Positions 2,936-20,000 of a DNA stretch of 20,000 nucleotides are shown here, in pieces (within the stretch, counting starts at the first letter, position 1; each line of letters begins with the position of its first letter). The notes under the pieces are model-generated. The model saw only the letters and a program-made list of their open reading frames with translations. It did not search any database and was not told where the DNA came from. Source of the DNA: Vermamoeba vermiformis. Taxonomy: Eukaryota. Both the position numbers and the translations under genes were made by a program. The stretch lies in NCBI GenBank assembly GCA_045837725.1, contig JBEWZL010000205.1, positions 51,631 through 71,630 on the forward strand. The letters run 5' to 3'.

Positions 2936-2963
2936 TTGCGTATTCTATTTTCATTCACATCAG

Positions 2964-3179
2964 CATCAAACAGGATGCACGATTATCGTGCACGCATGCG
3001 CATCAGACAGAGCGTACGATTATCGTGCACACATGCGTGCCAGACAGGGCGTACGATTATCGTGCACGCATGCGCATCAGACAGAGCGTACGATTATCGT
3101 GCACGCATGCGTACCAGACAGGGCGTACGATTATCGTGCACACATGCACATCAGACAGGGCGTACGATTATCGTGCACA
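2964..3179. repeat. 37-bp tandem repeat (~6 copies) with a palindromic core
   Basis: Core ACGATTATCGT at 2979, 3016, 3053, 3090, 3127 and 3164 (exact 37-bp period). Unit GTACGATTATCGTGCACGCATGCGCATCAGACAGAGC. Confidence 0.97.
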
Positions 3180-3180
3180 G

Positions 3181-4135
3181 GAGTGGGCACCTAGAATTCC
3201 ATGAGTGGGCACCTGGGATTCCGGGCACCTAGAATTCCGGGCACTTAGAATTCTGGGCACCTGGGATTCCGGGCACCTAGGATTCTGTGACTGGGCACCT
3301 AGGATTCCGTGGGCACCTAGAATTCCGCGCACATGACTGGGCACCTAGGATTCCGTGGGCACCTAGGATTCCGGGCACCTAGAATTCTGTGAGTGGGCAC
3401 CTGGGATTCCAGGCACCTAGAATTCCGTGAGTGGGCACCTGGGATTCCGGGCACCTAGGATTCCACGCACATGAGTGGGCACCTAGGATTCCGTGGGCAC
3501 CTAAATTTCCGTGAGTGGGCACCTAGGATTCCGTGAGTGGGCACCTGGGATTCTGGGCACCTAGGATTCCGTGAGTGGGCACCTGGGATTCCGGGCACCT
3601 AGAATTCCGTGAGTGGGCACCTGGAATTCCATGAGTGGGCACCTGGGATTCCGGGCACCTAGAATTCCGTGAGTGGGCACCTAGGATTCCGTGAGTGGGC
3701 ACCTGGGATTCCGGGCACCTAGGATTCCGTGAGTGGGCACCTGGGATTCCGGGCACCTAGGATTCCGCGTACATGAGTGGGCACCTAGGATTCCGGGCAC
3801 CTAGAATTCCGTGACTGGGCACCTAGGATTCCGTGACTGGGCACCTAGGATTCCGTGAGTGGGCACCTGGGATTCTGGGCACCTAGAATTCCGTGAGTGG
3901 GCACCTGGGATTCTGGGCACCTAGAATTCCGTGAGTGGGCACCTGGGATTCCGGGCACCTAGAATTCCGTGAGTGGGCACCTGGGATTCCGGGCACCTAG
4001 AATTCCGCGCACCTAGAATTCCGGGCACCTAGAATTCCGTGACTGGGCACCTAGGATTCCGGGCACCTAGGATTCCGTGAGTGGGCACCTGGGATTCCGG
4101 GCACCTAGAATTCCAGGCACATGACTGCACACCTA
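3181..4135. repeat. GC-rich minisatellite of GGGCACCTRGRATTCC (16 bp) with or without GTGAGT (22 bp), roughly 50 units
   Basis: Read directly; 16- and 22-bp units often alternate into a 38-bp higher-order unit. Confidence 0.97.
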
Positions 4136-4226
4136 AATTCAAACAGCCCTGCTGACTAAACTTTATGTGCCCACTAAATTCCTACATTTGTGTCACTCCC
4201 TGAACTTGCTTTTAAAACTCCTTTGC

Positions 4227-4413: not shown

Positions 4414-5978
4414 TTATTTATTTTTAGAGCCTAAGCGTACAGATGGGAATGAATTGTTCTTCATTTGCTGAACAAAACCCATGTCCTTATTCATTACAGT
4501 TTGTCGTTTTGCGTGAATAGCTGCAGCTTGAGACATCACAAATAGATCTGTGAGGAAATATTCAGAGGACAATTGTAGAGCTTCAAGAGCAACTGCTTGC
4601 CAGCGAACACCTTCTAAGTCACTATCACGGGTTAGATCTTCAGTTACTTCACGGACAAGGCGCTGGAAACCTCGACGTGACATCAGAAGTGTGGTGCTGT
4701 TTTGATAAAATTTGATTTCAGCCATGCCTATTAAAAATTATTAATAATGAACTAGTATAAATTTACTGAACTTACGTCTACTTGCAAGGCTTTGATTCAC
4801 GTTCTTCTTAGCCTTGAACACCTTGGGCTGCAAATGTTTTAATTACACACGTGTTTATGAAATTAGTTTAAATGATGATATAACTTACTCTTTTCGTTGG
4901 ACGAGAGTTTGAATCTGCACCTGATGCCTTTCGTTTCTGTCCTCTCTGTAAGATAAGACTGTGAGATTACTTATCAATTTACTAACAATATTACCTTCGG
5001 TTCATTCTCATTCTTATCGTCAACTACTCGTTTTCTCTTCTTTGCCTTCTTGTTGGCGACGGTTTTGTTTGTTGCACCTCTCTGCAATAATGTTAGGTCA
5101 TACTATTAATTAAATTACTTACCTTTGTCATGTACTCCTCTTCATCGACCTTGCCGACACTCTTTCTTTTCTTGTTTGGCTGTTTGGCAGGGGCTTGTTG
5201 CTTGGCAGTGTCCGCTTGTTTGCCACTCTCCGATCCTGATTGTCGTAGTTTGGCATTGCCGTCTTTGTTGCCTTCATCAGCAGCAACATTGGTGTCTTCA
5301 GCCTCACTGTCGCGTTTCTCGCCACCCCCTTCTTCTTCTTCAGCCTCACCATCGTCATTGTTACCGCGTTCTTTTTCGTGCTCGCTGTGTTCGCCTTCTT
5401 CTGGCGCTGCACCTTCAACGTTTTGGTTGTTTTGGGCTAATTCCTAAATAAAAATTAGCTATTGTTTGCTCATAGCCAATAAAACTGTACTGCATTAGCG
5501 TCGGTGATCTCAACAACTTCCTCGATCTCACCAGCCAAACGTGCTGATCGTCTGGGTGAATTACCAACACCATCATCTTGGGTCGCACGAGCTTTGTGGC
5601 GAGCTTTAGCTCCAGGCCTATTTCGTCTTTTACCGGTCCTGATTGAAGTACATTATTAAACGTGTTTTAATTATTAATTTCATCGAAAAAAAGCATCTTG
5701 GAAATTTGCCCCGTAAATAAAGATTAATGATTAAAATTACTTACTTTTGGCCTGATTTATTTGAAGATTTTTTTTTCGATTTATTCTTATTAGTAGACTG
5801 GGAATTAGACCTAATTATGCCGTTAATAATATTTAATTTTGACGATAAATATTTTATTCATAATTGTACACTACGTACTTATTTCCAGAGGCCACCCGAC
5901 CAGATCTGTTAACTATTGTAAATATCTAATAAACAAACTTATTATATGAGCTTACATTTCGTGTGGGGAACGAGGCAT
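4414..5978 (-). CDS. Divergent histone H3 variant (CenH3-like) with a very long charged N-terminal tail, 364 aa, 9 exons
   Basis: Exons 5978-5956, 5905-5879, 5810-5745, 5638-5491, 5443-5123, 5081-4995, 4945-4889, 4827-4776 and 4727-4414, all GT-AG and frame-consistent (first two exons less certain). The C-terminus EIKFYQNSTTLLMSRRGFQRLVREV...VRWQAVALEALQLSSEYFLTDLF...AIHAKRQTVMNKDM aligns with the H3 histone fold. Confidence 0.9.
5450..5484. promoter_or_regulatory. 35-bp palindromic site in a histone-gene intron (5444-5490)
   Basis: AAAAATTAGCTA-ttgtttgctca-TAGCCAATAAAA. Confidence 0.75.
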
Positions 5979-7055: not shown

Positions 7056-8583
7056 TTATTTAAAAATATTATCAATTTTCTTTTCTAAAAAATACAACTT
7101 TCTTGCTCGGCCTCCAGCTCGACGTGCTCCTCTCTGTGCAGAAGAACGCCCCGATGTACCTTTGGGCTGGTGGTTTGACGGCTCGATCTCTGGCAATGGC
7201 AGGCTTAGGAGGCTGGCCTTCGTACGGTCTCGAAGTCTAATGCTCTGCGTTGTCATTAGACATTATTAGATATAATTATATTATTATTTATATCTCGATT
7301 AGACATTATTATTTTATTTTAAACTTACCTCTTTTTGCGGCGATCCTAGCGTGATCTTTTTATCCGCCTCACCCCACCACATGTACGGTCCAACACCAAG
7401 ACCATGAGCCCCAAAGCCTGTCGTCTGCGTTGATTCTTTGTGCCAACTTGCTGGCATCTCGGATAATTCCTCTTCTTTAAGATCGGGCACAAAAATCGTT
7501 GCCTGAGACTTCGTTATTTTCATTTCTCGTGCACCGGCCTTCGTCAGCCCTGCTGTCAATCGCGCTACCGGCACTCGATGCTCTGGGTCCAAATTAACAG
7601 AGCTCGCTCGGTAGACTTTGATGAAAATGGCCCTGAACGAGAGCCATTCCCGCTCATCAAACTCGGTTGGCGGCACGTATGGTCTATTGGCCATATAGCC
7701 AATCATGAAGTCGAAGTACGCTTGAACCAAGGCAACGAACTGCTGCAAGTAACCGCGCACTATCATTGCGTCATAGAAATTTGCCCAAGGCCGAATGCCT
7801 AATTATGTAGTTAATAAATTGGCTATTATCCGTTAGTAGCCAGTATTTACCTGTATATTTGTACCACCAAAAGCAAATTTCGTTTGAAGAATACGCACCG
7901 ACACCGTTGAACATCGATTGGTTCAATAAACAGTCGATGATCGTTGCCCTCTAGTAAAATATTAGTATTAGTCGTACTGATTTGTTATTGTACTAACCTT
8001 GAAATATTTTTGGTAGGCATCATCGTTTAACAGCGCCAGCAAGTGTTCGTGCAAGTCGCCGGCAAGTACATCCGGGCCCCTGGCTGGATCCATCGCTAAA
8101 CTTGCATCAGGATGCCATTTGAATGACACCTGATTTTGTTTGGTGTGGCAATCTAATATATAGATTGCCGCACCATTGTCGGCATTTAGCGCTATGTTTC
8201 GCCGATAGTCTAATGGGCTCGTGTCGCGATCTGATATCGCACCAACGTGAAATGCTGCGCCGGTGCCCATGCCAAAGGTCATCGCGTAATTATTAAAAAT
8301 TAACGCAATTTCCTTGCCTCGTGATACTACCTACGTAAATAATAATTAATTATAACCTAATTTTAAATCAAAACTTACATCCGTAACCGTCAGCGGTAGG
8401 CACGCGCGCATTGCCTCGATCTCCGCGCTGTACTTGTTGTGAGGCACGCGCTTCTCCACTTCTACAATCCTTAAGCCAATTGCTATAAATAAAGATTAAT
8501 ACAGATTAAATTTTATTTTATTTGGAATTACCTTTTTCTTTGAGGTGCCTTGCGAAGCCCTCGATCTCTGTTTTTTCGGGCAT
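7056..8583 (-). CDS. nei: Fpg/Nei-family DNA glycosylase/AP lyase (NEIL1-like, no zinc-finger cysteines), 415 aa, 6 coding exons
   Basis: Exons 8583-8532, 8482-8379, 8330-7998, 7950-7851, 7798-7329 and 7244-7056. N-terminus MPEKTE (catalytic Pro2/Glu3), SRGKE (conserved Lys), FGMGTG, RGPD, H2TH motif IIDCLLNQSMFNGVGAYSSNEICF, GIRPW, IKVYR, and a basic disordered tail. Probable 5'-UTR intron at 8585-8625. Confidence 0.9.
7814..7848. promoter_or_regulatory. 35-bp palindromic site in a nei intron (7799-7850)
   Basis: ATAAATTGGCTA-ttatccgttag-TAGCCAGTATTT. Confidence 0.75.
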
Positions 8584-8644
8584 ACTATTAAACGGTAATC
8601 GATTAATTAACAATTAATAAATTACTTATTCAATTCGTTTAACG

Positions 8645-9073
8645 AAGCCAATCCGGATCATTTTGGCGAGTGCAACAACAGCTGCTGCCAGACACCAGCT
8701 TGATTTACGTCATAACGCCGCGGTTCATCTGGAACCAGCCGCGCTTGATTTCATCAAGCTGTGTGCGGCATCAAGCTGCATTGAAGCCGGATTAACCGTT
8801 GCTTCGATTGAGTCAGATGCGGTTCAACGGGAACCAGCAAAACGACAAAACCATCGCCAAAGCTGAGGTCACTCTTAATAGATTTTTGGAATTGGCTTCG
8901 CAAATAACAAAGCCAATCCGGATCATTTTGGCGAGTGCAACAACAGCTGCTGCCAGACACCAGCTTGATTTACGTCATAACGCCGCGGTTCATCTGGAAC
9001 CAGCCGCGCTTGATTTCATCATGCTGTGTGCGGCATCAAGCTGCATCGAAGCCAGATTAACCGTTGCTTCGAT
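8645..9073. repeat. 164-bp direct repeat (8645-8808 and 8910-9073)
   Basis: Two copies 265 bp apart with about 3 substitutions, upstream of the nei gene. Confidence 0.95.
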
Positions 9074-9470
9074 CGGATCAAGTGTGCGGTTTAACGTAAA
9101 CCAGCGCCACAGTAATCCATGCATGCCCTTGATGACCTCGCAGCGTAGTGTCGTATTTGATTACGAGTAAATTCCTAGTCAAGCCAGCACATCTCGAAAG
9201 TAATTTAAAAATTATACTAAAAAAATTTAAAATATTATTAAACGATAATATTTGTTTTTGTTGCTTACGTTTTATTTTTCTTGATGCCAAGCTCAGACAA
9301 ACTTCATTGGACTGAGATCGGGGTCCCGAAACCTTATGACAGGGCCGATCGACTATTTAAAAAACAGAAGTAGTAGTTAGAGGCTTTATTCTCGATATTG
9401 TTAGTACTTACCTGCGCGTGGTGTGTTGATATTGCGGTTTAAACAGTTAAATGACGTGTTTCGAAATTTA

Positions 9471-9545
9471 CCAAAAAAAGTTAGCCAAAAAAATTTGGGC
9501 CAAAAAAAGTTAGCCAAAAAATTCGTCCCAAAAAAAATTGCGGAA
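9471..9545 (+). repeat. Five CCAAAAAA(A) A-tract units at ~14-15 bp period
   Basis: ccaaaaaaagttagccaaaaaaatttgggccaaaaaaagttagccaaaaaattcgtcccaaaaaaaattg. Confidence 0.8.
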
Positions 9546-9589
9546 ACCAATTTTGCGCGTTTGTCTTCTATCCGCACAGATGCGCAGCA

Positions 9590-11820
9590 ACACAACTCAG
9601 CTAAAGGTCGTAATAGGTAAGTGTTCTTTATTGTTTTATTATTTATATTGTATTAATTTCTTTAGCTATCTTTACTAATTAATTTTCGTAGATTTTAATG
9701 CGCGCATCGGCTTAACCACGAGCAAAACCGCGTCAAGCCCCCACGCGCTTGGATGACCGCAGTGATGGTAAGTGTTATTTAATTCTCGCGTGAGAATACT
9801 AATTAATTTTATTTGTATTAGATTTTACAACGCATTGAAATTACCTGTGAGCGAGTCCGTGAAAAGCCCTCCGCGCTTTAATGATGAACAGTAACGCAGT
9901 ATTGATGGTAAGTTAATTATTTAATCTAGCGCGAGAATACTAATTAATTTTGTTTGTATTAGATTTTACAACGCGCATTGAAATTACCTGTGAGCGATTC
10001 GTGAAGAGCCCTTCGTGCTTTGATGAATGAACAGTAACGCAGTATTGATGGTAAGTATAATTATTTAATTCTCGCGTGAGAATACTAATTAATTTTGTTT
10101 GTATTAGATTTTACAACGCGCATTGAAATTACCTGTGAGCGAGTCCGTGAAAAGCCCTCCCGCGCTTTAATGAATAAACAGTAACGCAGTATTGATGGTA
10201 AGTTAATTATTTAGTTAATTAGTTAAGCTCGCGCTAGAATACTAATTAATTTTTACAGATTTTAGTACTAAAATGCGCATCGGGTTAGACTTGGCACAAG
10301 CAAGCCCGCACCGAGCTCTCTTTTGGCTCATCCTCTGCACTTCTTGTGCAGCATATGTGAACTATTCATGATGGCTACTCGCGTCTTGTTTCGCTAGAAC
10401 TGCGATTTCCGTGCTCTAGATTTGGTCACTGGCGCATCCGTACCGAGCCTTCCCTGCCTTGGCTCACCCTCTGCGCTTCTTCACAAGGGTCTGCGGTGTA
10501 TCGACGAACTATTCACGGTGACTACACGCGACCTGGGTCGTTGGAGACAGTGCAACACGATCTCCCGCGCATCGGATTTCTCGCTAGCGAATCCGCACCG
10601 AGCCCTCCCTGCCTTGGCTCACCCTCTGTGCTTCATCATAAGGGTGTGCGGTGTGTCGACGAACTATTCATGGTGACTACACGCGTCCTGAGTTGTTGGA
10701 GACAGCGCAACACGATCTCCCGCGCAGCAGATTTGGCAGTAGCGAATCCGTACCGAGCCTTCCCTTGCCTTGGCTCACCTCTGCGCTTCTTCACAAGGGT
10801 CTGCAGTGTGTCGACGAACTATTCATGGTGACTACACGCGTCCTGAGTTGTTGGAGACTGTGCAACACGATCTCCCGCACAGCAGATTTGGCAGTAGCGA
10901 ATCCGTACCGAACCTTCCCTTGCCTTGGCTCACCCTCTGTGCTTCATCACATGGGTGTGCAGTGTGTCGACGAACTATTCATGGTGACCACACGTGTCCT
11001 GAGTTGTTGGAGACTGTGCAACACGATCTCCCACGCATCGGATTTGGCAGTGGCGAATCCGTACCGAGCCTTCCCTTGCCTTGGCTCACCCTCTGTGCTT
11101 CATCACAAGGGTGTGCGGTGTGTCGACGAACTATTCATGGTGACTACACGCGTCCTGAGTTGTTGGAGACAGCGCAACACGATCTCCCGCGCAGCAGATT
11201 TGGCAGTAGCGAATCCGTACCGAACCTTCCCTGCCTTGGCTCACCCCCTGCTCTTCTTCGCAGGGTCTGCAGCGTGTTTACGAACTATTCGCGAAGGCTG
11301 TATGCGTTTTGGGGTCGCCGAAGTTCGAAGTAATGCGATCTCCTGTGGTTGGATTTAATCTCGAGCTAATCTGCACTGCGCTCTCTTCTGTCTTGGCTCA
11401 CCCTCTGCTTTAATGCCCGGCATCTGTACGTTCGTGGTGGTTAGGTGCGCGTTGCATCGCTGGGGACGAAGCAACACGATCTCCCACGCAGCAGATTTGT
11501 CACGAGCGAATCTGCACCGAGCCCTCCTTTGTCTTTGGCTTACCCTCCGCACTTCGTCGCAGGGTCTGCAGCGCCTTTACGAATTATTCATGGTAGACAC
11601 ACTGGATACTCGCAACACAATCGAGCACATCTCGGATGTAATGCGCAACGAGGCTCGCACTGAGTTCCAGATGCGTTACACGATTGCCGCAGGTCACTTC
11701 AAAGCCTGCAGCATCTTCATGAGCTATTCGTGATAGTTACAACATGGATGTTGAGACAAATGCAACGTGTGTAGTTCAGGATCTTGTTAATGTTGTTAAT
11801 AAAATGTAAAATAAATGTAT
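9590..11820 (+). ncRNA. Putative spliced long non-coding RNA built from tandem repeat units
   Basis: Five consensus introns (GTAAGT...CTAAT...YAG) at 9617-9691, 9768-9821, 9908-9962, 10051-10107 and 10198-10258. The internal exons checked (9692-9767, 9822-9907) have stops in all three frames. AATAAA motifs near 11798-11815. Transcript ends are approximate. Confidence 0.55.
10270..11770. repeat. ~155-bp tandem satellite (~10 units, central 5-6 nearly identical)
   Basis: Marker GAACTATTC at 10359, 10506, 10661, 10816, 10972, 11128 and 11282 (periods 147, 155, 155, 156, 156, 154), with degenerate copies near 11430, 11581 and 11721. Confidence 0.95.
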
Positions 11821-11892
11821 TAGTTTATTTGTTAGCTACTGGCTAGTAAGAGCTAGCAATTTAATAAAAGTCCGTTAGGATTTAGATTTTCA

Positions 11893-11938
11893 GGCCACAT
11901 TTTTTGGGTCACATTTTTTGGGTCACATTTTCCTGGCA
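11893..11938 (-). repeat. Three (CC)AAAAAATGTG-type A-tract units at ~15 bp period, upstream of the 800-aa gene
   Basis: Plus strand gccacatttttttgggtcacattttttgggtcacattttcctgg. Confidence 0.75.
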
Positions 11939-12005
11939 ATTTTTATTGTTTGCCTTGAACCTTATCCAATTTTGATTTCTAGTCGTTACAGAACTCTTCA
12001 AAGGT

Positions 12006-14813
12006 ATGTCTTTATTACAAAAATTAGAGGCAAATCTAGACAAAATTCTAAAAGAAAATGTCTCGTCGGGAGACTTCAAATTGCCCAATTTTAAGCAAAA
12101 TTTGAATTTCTTTTTAGATTACATTACCAAAAAATTTCCCTGTTTTGCCGATCAACCCCAGAAAGAAATATCTGGGTTGATTAAGGGCAAAATTGCTGCT
12201 ATTAACCCAACAGGATTTGTATCTGATGGTCAATTGCCAACTCCAAATGCAAAGCGTATCTGGGTAACGGCCTTTTATTCTCATCTCTTGCTTGGTAAAT
12301 CTTTTTCTTCACAGGAAAGTGTCCAAGATTGGGTAGCAGAAACATGGCCGGATCTCCAAGTACCTGTCCAGGCTTTCCAAGCAGCTTATATTTTGTTGAG
12401 CGAGTACTCTGATTCTCCACCAAGAGGTGCCAGAACCTCCAAGAGGAATGCTAGTTCTGGTGTGCAATTAGAAGTAAGACCTTGCAAATTCCAGCTATCA
12501 GCGATTAATAGCTTTGTTTTGTTGCTTAGGCGGGAGCTGCTGAAATTTCTGCTTCAATGGACTCAACCTCAAGAGATTCTGACGAGGAAGAGGAATCAGA
12601 CATAAGTCCTGGGCCTATCAAGGGTGCTCTCAGGCAAAATCCAAAGAGAGTGCAAAAGCTCAACCTGGATGAAAAGTTAGCGGATGATTCCAGTGTAGAT
12701 GAAGCTGAAATTGGGACTGGCAGTGATGTTGTTGTGAGTGATGACAGTAGGTCCCAGGGGCATGATAGCGACTCTCAACATGATGCCGAGCTAGAATCCG
12801 AGTTTAGCAATGATGATGTGATAAGTACTGAAACTGTCCAGCCCCCAGTACTGGATGAACATGAAGGAAATGCTCTAGAGCTGCTTGCCTGTTCAGCTTT
12901 GGATTTTCCCTCTGAAAGTAAGCAAAAACTAGCTACCATTGATTGATAGCTGATTTACTTTTGCAGATGACCCCGATGTCAGCAATAGTGTTACTTTTGC
13001 AACAAAAGCTTCAAGCCAACTTTCCAAAGCCAGTGTGAGGCAGGCTAGTGTTAAGCCAAAGGAAAATATTGGGTCACACGTCAACACAACAGAAAATGAG
13101 ACCGTGGCTACTGTCACAGCAGACTTGCCAAAACAACAGTCTTGTACACCTCAAAGTAAGCAAAAATGAGCTACCACAAGCCAATAGCTAATTATTTTAC
13201 AGGTTTGAGTCCTACTGTTGCAAATATTGTTAGTATGCTGATGGCTAAGGCATCAACAGGTTAGCTTACCATTACAATGTCTAATTAACGCCATTAACAA
13301 TATTGAAAACAGATCCTGAAAAACTTGGTGTACTGTGTGTGGCATACTTATCTGCAGTTCACTCATCTATGGTTGTCGAAGATAACAAATTGATTGCAGT
13401 GCGAGTGAATAATGAAACATGTAAGTGCCTCTATCTTTCCTATATTTTACAAACATTTTCTTACATTTAAAGCATAGTCAAATTCAAAAAGGGCATCCAT
13501 ATTGATGTGGAAGTAAGATGGTCTGACGAGTCTTCAAGCTCTTCGGAAGAAAGTTCCAAAAGTTCTAGAGAAATGAGATCTTCCAAAAGTTCTAAAGAAA
13601 AGAGGTCCAAACACAAGATACAAGAAGAAAGATCACAAAGTTCTACAGAAATGAAGTCTAGATCTAAGACACAGCATGGTGTTAAGGACAAAAAGAATGA
13701 TTCAATGGAGGTTTCTGAAGGCTCAAGTTTGCAATCAACTAATGCCATCGAGCCACAAAAAGAGTCAATCACATCTCAAGCCTCTGGTGCAGTAACCTGT
13801 GATAGTGCCCAAAAAAGTGGTTTGCAATCGAAGAAAAGAAAATCTGGAAGCATTGCTGAAGATGAATTGCCTAGCCCTTTAGACAATTCAAGACCTCAAG
13901 GATTTGCTGCATTAATCAGAGAGCTTGGCCTTGAAGGTAAGTTGCAGCCAACCAATTGACATTTTCTTACAATTTTTGTAGAAAAAACAATGGCGTTCTT
14001 GGAAAGACTCATCAAAAAGAATTACATCAATGAGGGCCTTTTCCAAACTTTTTCGACAGCAGCCCAAAGTGTAGTGCACAAGCCAGTAGAAATATTGTGT
14101 CCTACAGTGGACTACATGCCTAAACAGTTTTTGCAAACCTGGTTTGATCCTTCTTTGGGAAGTGTGAACAAAGATGAACTATTGGTTTGGATGGCCTCGA
14201 GCATGGAGACAATCTGTCCAACATACCTGAGCATCACGGTATGCAAAAACAAGCTATAAACTCATGATAGCTGATAATTTTGAATAGGTTTATGTAAAGC
14301 TAATGGTTTTTGTGCTGGCAACTGTTCTTCGGGCATGGTCAATGACTATTCAGACTGAGCTCCAAAATTCCTCAGAGTATGCTTCAACTCCAAATGCTGC
14401 ATCCATTGCATCCAAGACAAACGAGCAGTTACTGCAAAGGCTCGCAAAACATCCTCAGTTTGAGAAGCTGTGCAATATGGATTTGTTTCCTAGGAACTTT
14501 TACAAAACAACAACGCCAAAACAAACTTTTAGAACGTAAGTGCACATCAAAATGGCATTATTTCTAAGATGTTTTCATTTTTAGGTGTAAAAGTGAAATG
14601 CTCAAATTCTTGGAGCTTTGTCGCTTAGTACCTGCTTTATTGTTTTGTGAGTTGCCATATTCTTCAATCATCAGGCACTCTCCCACATTCACAGAGTTTG
14701 AAAAGGGTTGGACCATCTTAAAGAAGGATGTCCGTGCAAAGGACTTTTTACACCTGGCATATTTCACTGAAATTCCTATGCCAGTAGCCATTCCAAGCTA
14801 TTTACTTCAATAG
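12006..14813 (+). CDS. Hypothetical ~800-aa protein with long acidic and Ser/Lys-rich disordered regions, 9 exons
   Basis: Exons 12006-12473, 12530-12917, 12967-13155, 13203-13259, 13313-13420, 13478-13936, 13982-14238, 14288-14535 and 14585-14813 splice in frame with GT-AG introns. No family recognised; KKRK is a possible nuclear localisation signal. Confidence 0.85.
12486..12520. promoter_or_regulatory. 35-bp palindromic site in intron 12474-12529
   Basis: AAATTCCAGCTA-tcagcgattaa-TAGCTTTGTTTT. Confidence 0.7.
12924..12958. promoter_or_regulatory. 35-bp palindromic site in intron 12918-12966
   Basis: AAAAACTAGCTA-ccattgattga-TAGCTGATTTAC. Confidence 0.75.
13162..13196. promoter_or_regulatory. 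35-bp palindromic site in intron 13156-13202
   Basis: AAAAATGAGCTA-ccacaagccaa-TAGCTAATTATT. Confidence 0.75.
14245..14279. promoter_or_regulatory. 35-bp palindromic site in intron 14239-14287
   Basis: AAAAACAAGCTA-taaactcatga-TAGCTGATAATT. Confidence 0.75.
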
Positions 14814-14897: not shown

Positions 14898-17800
14898 ATG
14901 GACTCGGCTGGTTATCTCAACCATATATCTTCAGATCTTTATGCTGATCCTTATGCGGACTCCTTCAATGATTTTTCCTCAGACTTGGCTCCACACTATA
15001 TGGATGAACTTGAAAGTCTTGATTTGGAAGACCGAATGGATGTTGGGTCAGTTTTAACCCCAGTGCATGAAACAGCCCCAGTAAGTTATTGACATTCATT
15101 GTACAGTAAAAAATGTTTAATTTTGTTGAAAGGAGTTGTGGAGTTTGGAACAATACAAGTCTGCACACCCACAAACTGTGTTGTTTGTTCAAGACTTTTG
15201 TAAGCTGTCGGCAGAAGACCAAAGGAAAGTTATTTACAAACTTGAAAAGTATGTAATCATTACACTACATGTTTATTTACTGAGTTTTGTCTTTAGTTTC
15301 GATGAAAACGCTTCAAAGTGTGCTGAGCTGCCAAGACATCTGGCATCTGCTTTGAAAAAGAGCATAGATAGATTACAACCTGCTTCTGTATACACTAGTC
15401 AGTTAATGGAAGCAGTTAGAGTTGTGTCGACAAAGTCTCTTCCTGTCATTGGGGACCAGTCACCGCTAAAGCACTCAATTCTTCAAAAACACAAACAAAT
15501 TCCATGGCACGAGTGGATAAACAGTCCAGTCATGTACTCTCTAGACAATGTTGAGCCAAATCTTGGAGAAAACAACTTTAACACAACTATTGACATTGAT
15601 GCAACCATCGTCCACTCGAATACCTTGCATGTCATGAAACAAGGGTTCAGATTGTTTAGCAACCCAAGGTATCACCACCAAGCTGCAAAGATTAAGCATG
15701 CATACAAGGGAAAGTCTTTACATCGAGTAGTGCATGTTGAGATTGGGTAAGAAAACAATACTAAATCTATACATTAATAATCAATTTTCAGTGAGTTGGC
15801 TGGCAAATACAAAGTATATGCATGCTTTACCAACTTTCCTTCTTGGTACAACAAACAGGCAGATCTTGTACGAAAGTTTTATGAGTGCGTATTGAAAGGT
15901 ATGCAAAAATTAGCTATAGCTCATTCGTATCCAGTTTTTAACAATGAAATCTTTAGGAATCAAGCATGGTCCTCAATCAGGACAGGTTGGAATTTTCAAA
16001 GATATAGATCAGTACCTGAGCGCTACATCCTTTGCAGACCGTCAGCATATTGATATCCAACCAGATTCTTTCAAGTTCATTGAGAATTCTATATCACAGT
16101 TCAAATATGACGAGAAAAAGTAGGGTATTAATTCAATTTACTATGCTAACAAGATTTTAGAGTGGATGTATGTTACTCTTTCCAATACTTTGGAGCAAAA
16201 GAGGTTGTTACTCCAACTGGTTTTAAAGCTCACATGGATTTAATTGGGTCAATATTTGACATTGCAGGCATTGTTGATCCTTCAAACAAAATGCTTGATG
16301 ATACAGTTTATATTCAAGATCTAGCTCTTACAATCAGGTATCTTGCTCTCAACAATTGGAATTCTTATACTGATTTCATGTATTAGTCCTGTTAAAGAAC
16401 AACGCCATAAAATTGCGTTGCTATGGAACCCAGAATTCCTAGGGTCATTAGGCAAGCAGGATTCATCCCCTTTAAAAAGATTACTGAAGGCAAATGAACG
16501 AAGTGAACAGCCTACAAAAGAAGTTTACCCAAAGGGCTCTACAATTCTTTATCCAAATTTGGGAATGGGTCAAATTACCAGTTGTATGGTCGATTGGTCT
16601 TCAACAAAGGGTGCTATTAGAGAAATCAAAGGATACTGCTCAGTGAGCAAAATTTGGCGCTTAAATGCTCCGTATGAAGATACTTGCTACTCTGTAGCCG
16701 CTCTACCTCTGGCTCCAATGTTGAGCAATTCTGATATAGATGACCATGTGTGGAAAGCTCTTGATGACCGGTGCGTTGTCATTAACTTGTTTATTGTTTC
16801 CATTGCTAATTAGATTTAGTGTTCACAAAATAATTGCTTCATTTGAAAAGCACTTGGAAAATGAAAAGATCTACAACATCTGCCAGGCTCTTCAAGAAAC
16901 AACAGCTGGCGTCAGACTAGAAATAAGTTTCCAAAATCTTGGGTCTGAGCGACTACAGCAAGCTTATAAAGAGCTGGAAGAGTTATCACAGTCCATTCTC
17001 AAAACTCACTTGGGATTGCAAACTCTGTACCAACAAGAGTACATTCCATTGGAGAGCATGCGATTTAGTCCTTTGCAAATAGTTACTACTTGCTCTGTAA
17101 CAGCTCTAACTGAATTCCAAGCAAAGTCGATGAACTGCATGTTTGAAAAAATTCTCGAGCAGGTTATCAAAGGTAAAAACAAGCTACCGAGTGATCATAG
17201 CTAATTTTTGTATAGAAGGAACAAACAACACTAGCATAGATACGGTAAATGCCCTTGCTGTTCTGGAGGATGTATGTACATGACACGAATTCAAAATCTG
17301 TGTTATTAATTTGAATGGTCTGCTCTACAGCTACAGAAATTGTTGTGGTCTGGTAGTATTCCTACTCTTCATAATCCTTCGCTATTCAAAGCATATAATG
17401 TAATTGGTTGGATCAACAAGTACAATAGAGTGTATCTACCGCCATCAGTGTTCCGTTACAACCATCAGTCTCCTGCTAAGAGCTCCTGCATTTTGAAGTC
17501 TTTGGTTAATACTGTTGATGATACAGAAGGGGCGGACCCAGAAGTGTTTCGTACAGGATTAATGGCTCCTAATTTAGCAATCACAAATAGATTCTTATAC
17601 CAAGCATTTGGGGAGAACAGCAAAAAAGTAGCAGAAGTGTGCAAGACAATCAACGACATGGTGATTGTGAAGTTGAATGGCCAATCAAAATTGCTACAGC
17701 CAACTTATCTTTCGCAAACAATGATCATTGCCACAAATTTGCTGAACAAGCTGTTTGAATGCTTGTTGTCTGAAATGGCCATTCCAAGCACTCAACATCA

Positions 17801-18721
17801 CAAAGTCTTTCAGCTGCTTCGAAATGAGCTACCTTATGAAATTGCAAACGCTAGATCCAATGCCAAAATTACAACAATCAAGGGCTTTGTACGCAACTGC
17901 TTTCCTTTAGACAATCCTGCTGCATCCATTGAAAAGCAACCGTTCTTTGCACTTTGGGTGGAAACTGTTGCATCGTTGAACCATGTCAATAAGTATGTAA
18001 AAACAAGCTATCAAGTAGCGGTAGCTAATTTTTGCACAGGAGCATGCATTTTGCAGCATATTGCGATGTAAAAGAAAAGAATGGAGTGGGCTATCCAGTA
18101 AACAAGACGATATATGCAGAGGATATCCAAAAACAAATGATTATTGTGTTGTTCAACAGTGAAATACGATGGCTACCATCTCTTGGGTCCAATTCATTGG
18201 TGCTCAAGGATAAGGCTGGCAAGTTTGTTTTGGACAAGGTGGCTCTGCAATTCAAGTCAAGCATATTTCCTGATTGCAAAATGACTGCAAAAGATGGAGA
18301 ATTGCTTCCTCATCCAGTTGATGGATCCTTCATCCACATGCTTGCTGTGCAGGTTGGAACTCTCGCTGCAAAAAAGAGAGAAGCTGAGGTTGCTGCTTAC
18401 AAACAGGCAAATCCAGATTATAACAAGCCCAGAGTTATTCGAACAGGTGCGATTAGCAAAGTGTCCACTTACAATGCACAAACAGTGAAGTATAGCGCTG
18501 CTGAGATTATTGGACAGTTGTTATTTCAGTACTTCCACATGCCAGTGCATGAACAGATGCCCGCATCCGAAGCTGAAAAGTACAAAACATCTGTTAATAC
18601 ACACAACTCCTCAAAAAAGGCCATTGTTGCTACCAAGATGCTTCGAGAAGCTACACATGGACGTGGATACCAGCGACTTTCTCTTGATGATTTGTGGAGA
18701 TTGCACATAAGTTTGAAGTAG
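14898..18721 (+). CDS. Large hypothetical protein, ~1112 aa, 11 exons
   Basis: Exons 14898-15080, 15133-15248, 15297-15746, 15792-15898, 15957-16119, 16161-16337, 16387-16770, 16814-17172, 17216-17271, 17331-17992 and 18040-18721 join in frame. Globular-looking core with motifs IDID, LHRVVHVEIG, YFGAKE, QDLALTI, KGYCSVSK and GVRLEISF. Confidence 0.85.
15905..15939. promoter_or_regulatory. 35-bp palindromic site in intron 15899-15956
   Basis: AAAAATTAGCTA-tagctcattcg-TATCCAGTTTTT. Confidence 0.7.
17175..17209. promoter_or_regulatory. 35-bp palindromic site in intron 17173-17215
   Basis: AAAAACAAGCTA-ccgagtgatca-TAGCTAATTTTT. Confidence 0.8.
17999..18033. promoter_or_regulatory. 35-bp palindromic site in intron 17993-18039
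   Basis: AAAAACAAGCTA-tcaagtagcgg-TAGCTAATTTTT; arms identical to the 17175 copy, spacer different. Confidence 0.8.
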
Positions 18722-19399: not shown

Positions 19400-19870
19400 G
19401 AATGAAGGACTAAGTTAAAGCCCCAAAGTTGGGATTTGACATCAGACTCACTGTTAAATCCATGATTTCATAGTGAATATGAAGACTATTAACAGATCCG
19501 AGTAGAACTCAGCTTGATCCAGTGCCTGGAGGTGAGTCAGCACCAAGAGCAAAGACTCAAAGTTGGGAAACACTTTGGAATAGGTGTTCCATTGATGGAT
19601 CATAGCTAATAACAGTAAAGTAGCAGATCTATTTTGAAGTCAGTTCAACGTGATCCCTTGATTTGATTCAGCTCCAAGAATCAAATAAAGGTTGGGATTT
19701 AACTTGGGAATCAGTGTTTAATCAATGAATCATAGCAAATCTAAGTAAAATAATAGATCTGTGGTGAAGTTAACTCAATTTGATCCCTGGATCTTAGTTA
19801 ACAACCAAGGTCTGTGGCTTGGTAAAATCCAAGTAAAGTTTTTATCTGCAATCCCAAAGTTTGATGCATG
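19400..19870. repeat. Degenerate ~130-bp tandem repeat (3-4 copies), subtelomere-like
   Basis: Recurring landmarks at ~130-bp spacing: AARGTTGGGA (19425, 19559, 19688), CATAG (19469, 19601, 19731), AGATC (~19494, 19625, 19755) and CCAAG (~19543, 19675, 19806). Confidence 0.7.
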
Positions 19871-19949: not shown

Positions 19950-20000
19950 TTAGGGTTAAGAGGTAAGTTAGGGCTAGTCGAACAATAGGGTTAGGGTTAG
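19950..20000 (+). repeat. Degenerate then perfect TTAGGG telomere-type repeats at the window edge
   Basis: TTAGGG at 19950 and 19968, then TAGGGTTAGGGTTAG at 19986-20000, with the G-rich strand running toward the end. Confidence 0.65.

Follow-up and report, generated by a model that had tools for sequence, protein, structure and literature searches.

Non-coding genes in which a unit of exon plus intron is reiterated head to tail are found in the SNORD116 and SNORD115 clusters of the U-UBE3A-AS long non-coding RNA (lncRNA), as set out in PMC3845636. In the present study, we analyzed a 20,000-nucleotide (nt) stretch of DNA from Vermamoeba vermiformis (assembly GCA_045837725.1, contig JBEWZL010000205.1, positions 51,631 to 71,630 of the forward strand; hereafter the window, with its first letter as position 1), in which a tandem-repeat array at about 9540-11830 is likewise predicted to repeat a non-coding exon plus intron unit head to tail. 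The SNORD115 and SNORD116 units are much larger than those of the array. Their introns each hold a C/D small nucleolar RNA (snoRNA), whereas the introns of the array are 54-75 nt long and match neither a snoRNA nor any Rfam family, and the repeat family of the array, unlike theirs, continues in an intron-less form.

The hsr-omega gene of Drosophila has a spliced 5' part, a small open reading frame (ORF) that can be translated and long tandem repeats before its 3' end, as described in 10.1101/695486. The array resembles it in layout only, with a predicted 33-codon ORF from exon 1 and about 10 monomers in the predicted last exon; the hsr-omega intron lies outside the repeat family, and there is no sequence relation between the two loci. 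Tandem duplication has furthermore been linked to the origin of introns (PMC4974935, PMC3629103). In our array, a unit that already had both splice sites seems to have been copied, and this within a non-coding array. The duplication model of intron gain, in contrast, lets a duplicated exonic AGGT provide new splice sites in a coding gene. Introner elements also comprise a number of introns that are nearly identical and bring splice signals of their own, as the array does, but they are dispersed through unrelated genes, whereas the copies described here stand in tandem at one locus, with none elsewhere in the window and no match in three public collections. A keyword search with thin coverage of the literature found no published satellite with intron-bearing monomers in one part of the array only.

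We consider the array, at a probability of roughly one half, to be a spliced non-coding transcription unit made from one repeat family, whose intron was multiplied by tandem duplication. This reading starts from the repeat structure, the register of the units, the anatomy of the splice signals and the lack of a coding signal. One tandem-repeat family of about 14 monomers, lying between two protein-coding genes, would most likely form a non-coding plus-strand unit transcribed by RNA polymerase II, in which a short unique first exon is followed by four repeat-derived exons of 76-90 nt, with five short canonical GT-AG introns between them, and by a terminal exon of about 1.6 kilobases that consists of intron-less monomers of 155/156 base pairs (bp) and ends at AATAAA. 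The intron would sit in the last third of the monomer and would have been multiplied by tandem duplication of a monomer already bearing it, while the first such intron may have come either from in-situ decay of that last third to an AT-rich spliced segment or from its replacement by unrelated sequence. As to function, the transcript would most likely have none, being simply a side product of the promoter of its neighbour; less likely, it could be a multivalent repeat RNA comparable to hsr-omega.

The putative first exon (9540-9616; this and all following features of the array are on the plus strand), the 5' end of which we infer, lies outside the repeat and ends at the donor G|GTAAGT, where intron-like segment 1 begins (9617-9691; 75 nt, guanine-plus-cytosine (GC) content 0.19). 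The 5' part of this segment is unique, and its 3' 25 nt (TACTAATTAATTTT..TAG) are common to the other segments. Next come exon-like piece 2 (9692-9767; 76 nt, GC 0.57; the most satellite-like left unit), segment 2 (9768-9821; 54 nt), piece 3 (9822-9907; 86 nt), segment 3 (9908-9962; 55 nt), piece 4 (9963-10050; 88 nt), segment 4 (10051-10107; 57 nt), piece 5 (10108-10197; 90 nt) and segment 5 (10198-10258; 61 nt), the last of which shows a micro-duplication of 12 nt and has a shorter 3' tract, with CAG at its end. A hinge unit (10259-10410) starts like a left exon (ATTTTA) and then continues as a satellite monomer without an intron-like segment, followed by six well-kept 155/156-bp satellite monomers, S1-S6 (10411-11342; GC about 0.56), and by the degenerate monomers S7 and S8 with a remnant, S9 (11343-11770). 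Tandem Repeats Finder (TRF) reports a 145-bp period for the left block (9763-10213, 3.1 copies, 90% matches, score 765) and a 155-bp period for the right block (10418-11290, 5.6 copies, 89%, score 1359), which may alternatively be read with a period of 311 (2.8 copies). Profile searches carry the right block through the two degenerate monomers (E 4e-28 and 5.4e-36) and the remnant (11704-11741, E 0.0034), to about 11741-11770. With start-to-start spacings of 130, 141, 145, 157, 137, 155, 155, 155, 156 and 156, the left and right blocks form one continuous register, and no foreign sequence lies between them.

All five intron-like segments contain GTAAGT, TACTAATTAATTTT and a final AG, and thus show the 5' and 3' (YAG) signals of U2-type GT-AG introns, with a branch-like TACTAAT/TTAAT located 13-23 nt from the 3' end. 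Their GC content is 0.19-0.25, against 0.42-0.57 for the intervening pieces. A first-pass annotation of this DNA had predicted five introns, AT-rich and with consensus splice signals, and had described the corresponding part of the right units as GC-rich; five GTAAGT...TACTAAT...AG segments were found exactly at the places given, and the satellite monomers are GC-rich. The same genome offers a comparison for these segments. In the minus-strand neighbour at 7245-8585, excision of five GT-AG segments (47-84 nt, GC 0.14-0.29) yields a 415-codon ORF, by which these introns are validated locally; the array segments, whose branch-like motif in this comparison lies 13-19 nt from the 3' end, fall within their range in length, AT-richness and signals, have an even stronger consensus, and do resemble real introns.

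All five occurrences of the strict motif GTAAGT..TACTAAY..YAG in the window fall within the array, whereas 300 composition-keeping shuffles gave a mean of 0.06 and a maximum of 1. The indels between intron copies sit between the splice signals and not inside them, and intron 1, with a 5' part of its own, comes after an exon outside the repeat, as it would in a real gene. Identity is 92-96% among introns 2-4 and 93-99% among exons 3-5. Because introns 2-4 are young tandem copies, their repeated perfect signals are largely inherited and provide no independent support, and the five introns represent at most two or three independent origins and not five separate events.

The left units and the satellite belong to one repeat family, with statistical support that is limited to the first 50 nt or so of the unit. 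The common core over these positions reads CGCGCAT..AGCGA.TCCG....AGCCCTCC..CTTKG. Left unit U0 (9692-9821), when compared with two satellite units, scores 29, whereas shuffled sequences average 15.5 with a maximum of 24, so that none of 300 reached the observed value; the three young left units are individually weak against the satellite (62, 16 and 22 of 300 shuffles reach the score). For the 5' halves of U0-U3 taken separately, the observed score was reached by 2, 48, 5 and 0 of 1000 shuffles. A profile built from the four left 5' cores found satellite units in register (E 9.9e-5, 0.011, 0.031 and 0.04), with a single unrelated match under E 10. The hinge unit, taken as 10259-10417, is plainly satellite (z 21.6; profile E 1.9e-27). 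Over a core of about 55 nt, the left units share 61-66% identity with S2, and degenerate S7 shares 51-64% with S2-S6; the left units are thus no further from S2 than S7 is from S2-S6, which counts for one family. The earlier description of the left units as diverged homologs of the satellite accordingly stands for the first 50 nt or so, and beyond them the two are linked by register only. Both of the strings quoted in its support, at 9701 and 10567, are present, although the satellite string starts at 10566.

Several results weigh against our reading. Short-read contigs from a DNA run confirm the sequence piecewise (26 contigs, 27 of 30 bins covered) and none spans the array, which makes its copy number provisional. 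Of the five introns, three arose by recent copying, and a looser intron motif is not enriched, occurring 11 times in the window against 4.98 +/- 2.25 (maximum 13) in shuffles. The satellite profile is not significant on its own against the left units (E 0.21-4), and the introns with their flanks resemble the satellite's last third no more than chance allows (132-1470 of 2000 shuffles reach the score). The satellite is open in two plus-strand frames, a feature absent from the first-pass annotation, with a stop-to-stop ORF of 238 amino acids, and has 16 plus-strand stops against 30.5 +/- 4.4 in mononucleotide shuffles, which formally leaves some small probability to coding. Finally, transcription, splicing, promoter, poly(A) site and function are all deduced from the letters of the DNA. 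No RNA run on record contained 9540-11800, and three RNA runs labelled as the same species (about 13 million reads from each) yielded 0 reads over 9250-12050, an uninformative result given that nothing shows the organism to be present in those runs.

Part of this evidence can be turned towards a tentative competitor, in which the array is an intergenic satellite that is untranscribed or only incidentally transcribed, its intron-like segments being relics, or a single lucky arrangement copied by unequal crossing-over, and any splicing being inconsequential. The youth of three intron copies agrees with such a view, as does the repeat-prone nature of the region, where three other arrays occur within 20 kilobases (2958-3215, 3185-4136 and the duplication at 8640-9080), and no relatives or conservation were found in the collections searched. 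A chance arrangement, however, is hard to reconcile with the expectation of merely 0.06 full strict intron motifs per window. Intron 1, moreover, contributes an independent GTAAGT that is correctly spaced behind its non-repeat exon, and the AT-rich segments begin and end exactly at GT and AG, with a jump in GC resembling that at the validated introns of the neighbour.

More doubtful is the proposal of the first-pass annotation that the satellite was intronised (or the opposite) by conversion of the monomer's last third where it stood, with the left and right units displaying the same nucleotides before and after. The register is continuous where an intron plus the next 9 nt (63-66 nt in all) stands at the position of the last 42-47 nt of the satellite, and the left units (130-157 bp) are no longer than satellite units, unlike what simple insertion would give. 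The best local match between the 3' halves, ACGCAGTATTGATGGTAAGTA / ACGAACTATTCATGGTGACTA, is also collinear; the score, however, was reached by 110, 43 and 44 of 1000 shuffles for U1-U3, and the match fails for U0 (880 of 1000). The donor-context match that had been put forward, ATTGATG|GTAAGT with ATTCATG|GTGACT, is therefore not beyond chance, and neither is the supposed echo of the satellite within the introns, in view of the comparison with the satellite's last third given above; against the corresponding part of the hinge unit, 606-1811 of 2000 shuffles reached the score of the introns and flanks. In a multiple alignment (MAFFT) the donor falls at another position of the satellite, and the direction of change would need an outgroup. 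Because neither the donor context nor the echo exceeds chance, what speaks for intronisation is position: the intron occupies the place of the monomer's GC-rich last third, whereas descent from those nucleotides is not established. In-situ conversion thus agrees with register and position, finds no significant similarity between intron and satellite, and is neither supported nor excluded. The fuller scenario, in which in-place change made a spliceosomal intron of the final third of a satellite monomer and the intron-bearing form then spread by unequal crossing-over, with both forms carried in one transcript, we hold to be unlikely.

On either side of the predicted transcription unit lies a 14-nt repeat. 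The first (9471-9536, A-rich, of the CCAAAAAAAGTTAG type; TRF period 14 with 3.6 copies, or period 28 with 2.3 copies) separates the array from a predicted minus-strand leader in divergent orientation; the second, the 14-nt repeat CACATTTTTTGGGT at 11896-11931, is its inverted counterpart upstream of the next plus-strand gene (ATG 12006), and the inverted pair is 72% complementary over 61 nt. We take the 9471-9536 repeat to be promoter-like in appearance. Between this A-rich repeat and the neighbour's ATG at 8585, the minus strand carries a GTAAGT...TAG segment (9353-9411), which suggests a divergent promoter shared by the array and the minus-strand neighbour. A two-copy repeat of 265 bp (8640-8815 and 8905-9080, 96%) is likewise found upstream of this ATG on the minus strand, and 8586-9440 may represent a leader with repeats that is spliced and forms a mirror image of the array across the A-rich repeat. 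At the other end, two AATAAA hexamers (11798 and 11810, within 11798-11815 of the plus strand) follow within 45 nt of the last remnant and form a possible polyadenylation signal. Some DNA contigs have one base fewer in the A-runs of the 14-nt repeat, at 9473 and 9487, which suggests length polymorphism or sequencing slippage. The inverted 14-nt repeats were also considered as the terminal inverted repeats of a transposon, a reading that we rejected, shared promoter motifs facing the outward genes appearing to be the better fit.

These boundaries bear on the suggestion, which we find improbable, that the array belongs to the downstream gene, either as a long spliced 5' leader or as a region of alternative first exons. 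It lies on the same strand, about 200 nt from ATG 12006, and the acceptor-like TTTCTAG and TTACAG occur just upstream of that ATG. Nevertheless, the two AATAAA and the separate promoter-like 14-nt repeat intervene between the array and the gene, and such a leader would contain more than 17 upstream ATGs.

The locus is without convincing coding capacity, as expected for an lncRNA gene. Each of the four internal exon-like pieces has at least one stop in each of the three plus-strand frames, and their lengths (76, 86, 88 and 90 nt) reflect non-triplet indels. In the satellite, where an ATG ORF of 177 codons runs from 10825 to 11358, 1-nt indels separate the monomers and the reading frame slips relative to the monomer, and the variable columns lack 3-periodicity (7/9/6 of 22 for S2-S5; 22/19/16 of 57 for S1-S6). 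No protein relatives of the satellite ORF were found among the 4789 candidates scored, nor was there a credible Pfam match. The spliced model contains 17 ATG triplets before its longest ATG ORF; the 33-codon ORF starts at ATG 9580 in putative exon 1 and would run into exon 2 through the predicted splice. Alternative genetic codes were considered and dropped, since indels that are not multiples of three distinguish the left exons and the standard code reads the neighbouring genes well. The earlier view of the array as non-coding is hence upheld, its statement that the exons are closed in all frames holding for the four internal pieces.

That the repeats instead encode a protein of 52-residue repeats is very improbable, even though S3-S5 measure 156 bp, equal to 52 codons, with two plus-strand frames open there, and though the satellite has fewer stops than its shuffles. 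The slipping frame, the lack of a third-position excess, the absence of relatives among the candidates scored and of a credible Pfam match, and the 17 upstream ATGs all stand against it, and the scarcity of stops is partly explained by the A-poor plus strand (18%), which alone lowers their number.

Searches for structured or small RNAs in the array gave little. Rfam produced no family at the gathering score over the whole window, and at E values up to 5 in 8500-12000 it gave only a meaningless match to a bacterial small RNA (E 4.4); a tRNA search found none. Plus-strand folds of introns, exons and monomers have z scores from -1.4 to +1.9, and introns 2-5 (z -0.28, 0.75, -0.77 and -1.36) form no hairpin of the mirtron kind on that strand, whereas on the minus strand introns 4 and 5 give folds that are a little better than those of shuffles (z -2.8 and -2.3). 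No unit was found to encode an intronic snoRNA, with no Rfam match and introns of 54-75 nt, and a C-box-like TGATGA occurs only in some left exons. A host gene for intronic snoRNAs, mirtrons or repeat-derived small RNAs is consequently scarcely credible, for all that the SNORD115/116 host genes are non-coding with tandem exon-intron units (PMC3845636) and that two minus-strand folds are better than shuffled.

Beyond the window, viral contigs and prokaryote genome contigs scanned for the array patterns gave 0 matches. In metagenome contigs, the sole match to the satellite pattern (L001) was a chance one, and the ordinary long ORF that contains it has no such repeat.

The window as a whole is eukaryotic DNA of about 40% GC, in which short AT-rich introns interrupt protein-coding genes. 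The genes neighbouring the array are themselves near-orphans. The minus-strand gene with five introns (7245-8585, ATG 8585) encodes a protein of 415 residues with the N-terminus MPEKTEIEGF. When 1.84 billion representatives were searched exhaustively with one of its exons, only 18 relatives emerged, all unnamed and with 50-53% identity for the best; a word-index protein search returned no relatives of this exon, and a viral contig search no match. Four real relatives that were tested contain no Pfam family, and a fifth, weak match (P0018, E 1.9e-4), with bacterial immunoglobulin (Ig) and cadherin-like domains, is probably spurious. Comparison of the neighbouring proteins with a protein atlas gave only scores below 0.9. 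Among ten window ORFs, Pfam recognized no family beyond the histone fold of a divergent, H3-like ORF at 4414-4737 on the minus strand (Pfam Histone, E 1.8e-19).

The downstream plus-strand gene (ATG 12006) has six candidate introns of 36-49 nt (12918-12966, 13156-13202, 14239-14287, 15899-15934, 17173-17215 and 17993-18039), which share the pattern GTA[AT]GCAAAAA..AGCTA[CT]...[AG]TAGCT[AG]AT..AG with an internal inverted repeat AGCTA/TAGCT. Excision restores an open frame over +/-40 codons for three of the six, and the other three lie near further introns. This intron family differs from the introns of the array. Downstream of the long plus-strand gene there is a degenerate duplication of about 129 bp (19559-19662 / 19688-19792).

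Elsewhere in the window, two GC-rich minisatellites were observed, one with a 37-bp unit in about 6 copies (2958-3215) and one with a 22/38-bp unit (GGGCACCTAGGATTCC...) in about 40 copies (3185-4136); both, like the 155-bp satellite, are far richer in GC (0.57-0.59) than their surroundings (about 0.40). Short telomere-like runs of the TTAGGG type occur at 2534-2549 inside the window and at 19950-20000 at its end, and these runs, along with the abundance of arrays, hint that the setting is subtelomeric. On the minus strand, one in-frame TAG (719-721) splits two long ORFs of the same frame, 722-1630 and 2-718, and could mark an unrecognised intron, a pseudogene or readthrough; protein relatives of the ORF 722-1630 were sought and none was found.

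As it stands, the locus is a well-formed prediction. Should the in-place conversion prove true, the array would provide a datable natural series, from which one could learn the few substitutions by which a short AT-rich stretch becomes spliceable. If splicing does take place, intron-bearing and intron-less copies of the same repeat would adjoin in one transcript, and the array would offer a compact natural test bed for the definition of short introns and for the multiplication of introns by tandem duplication outside coding sequence.

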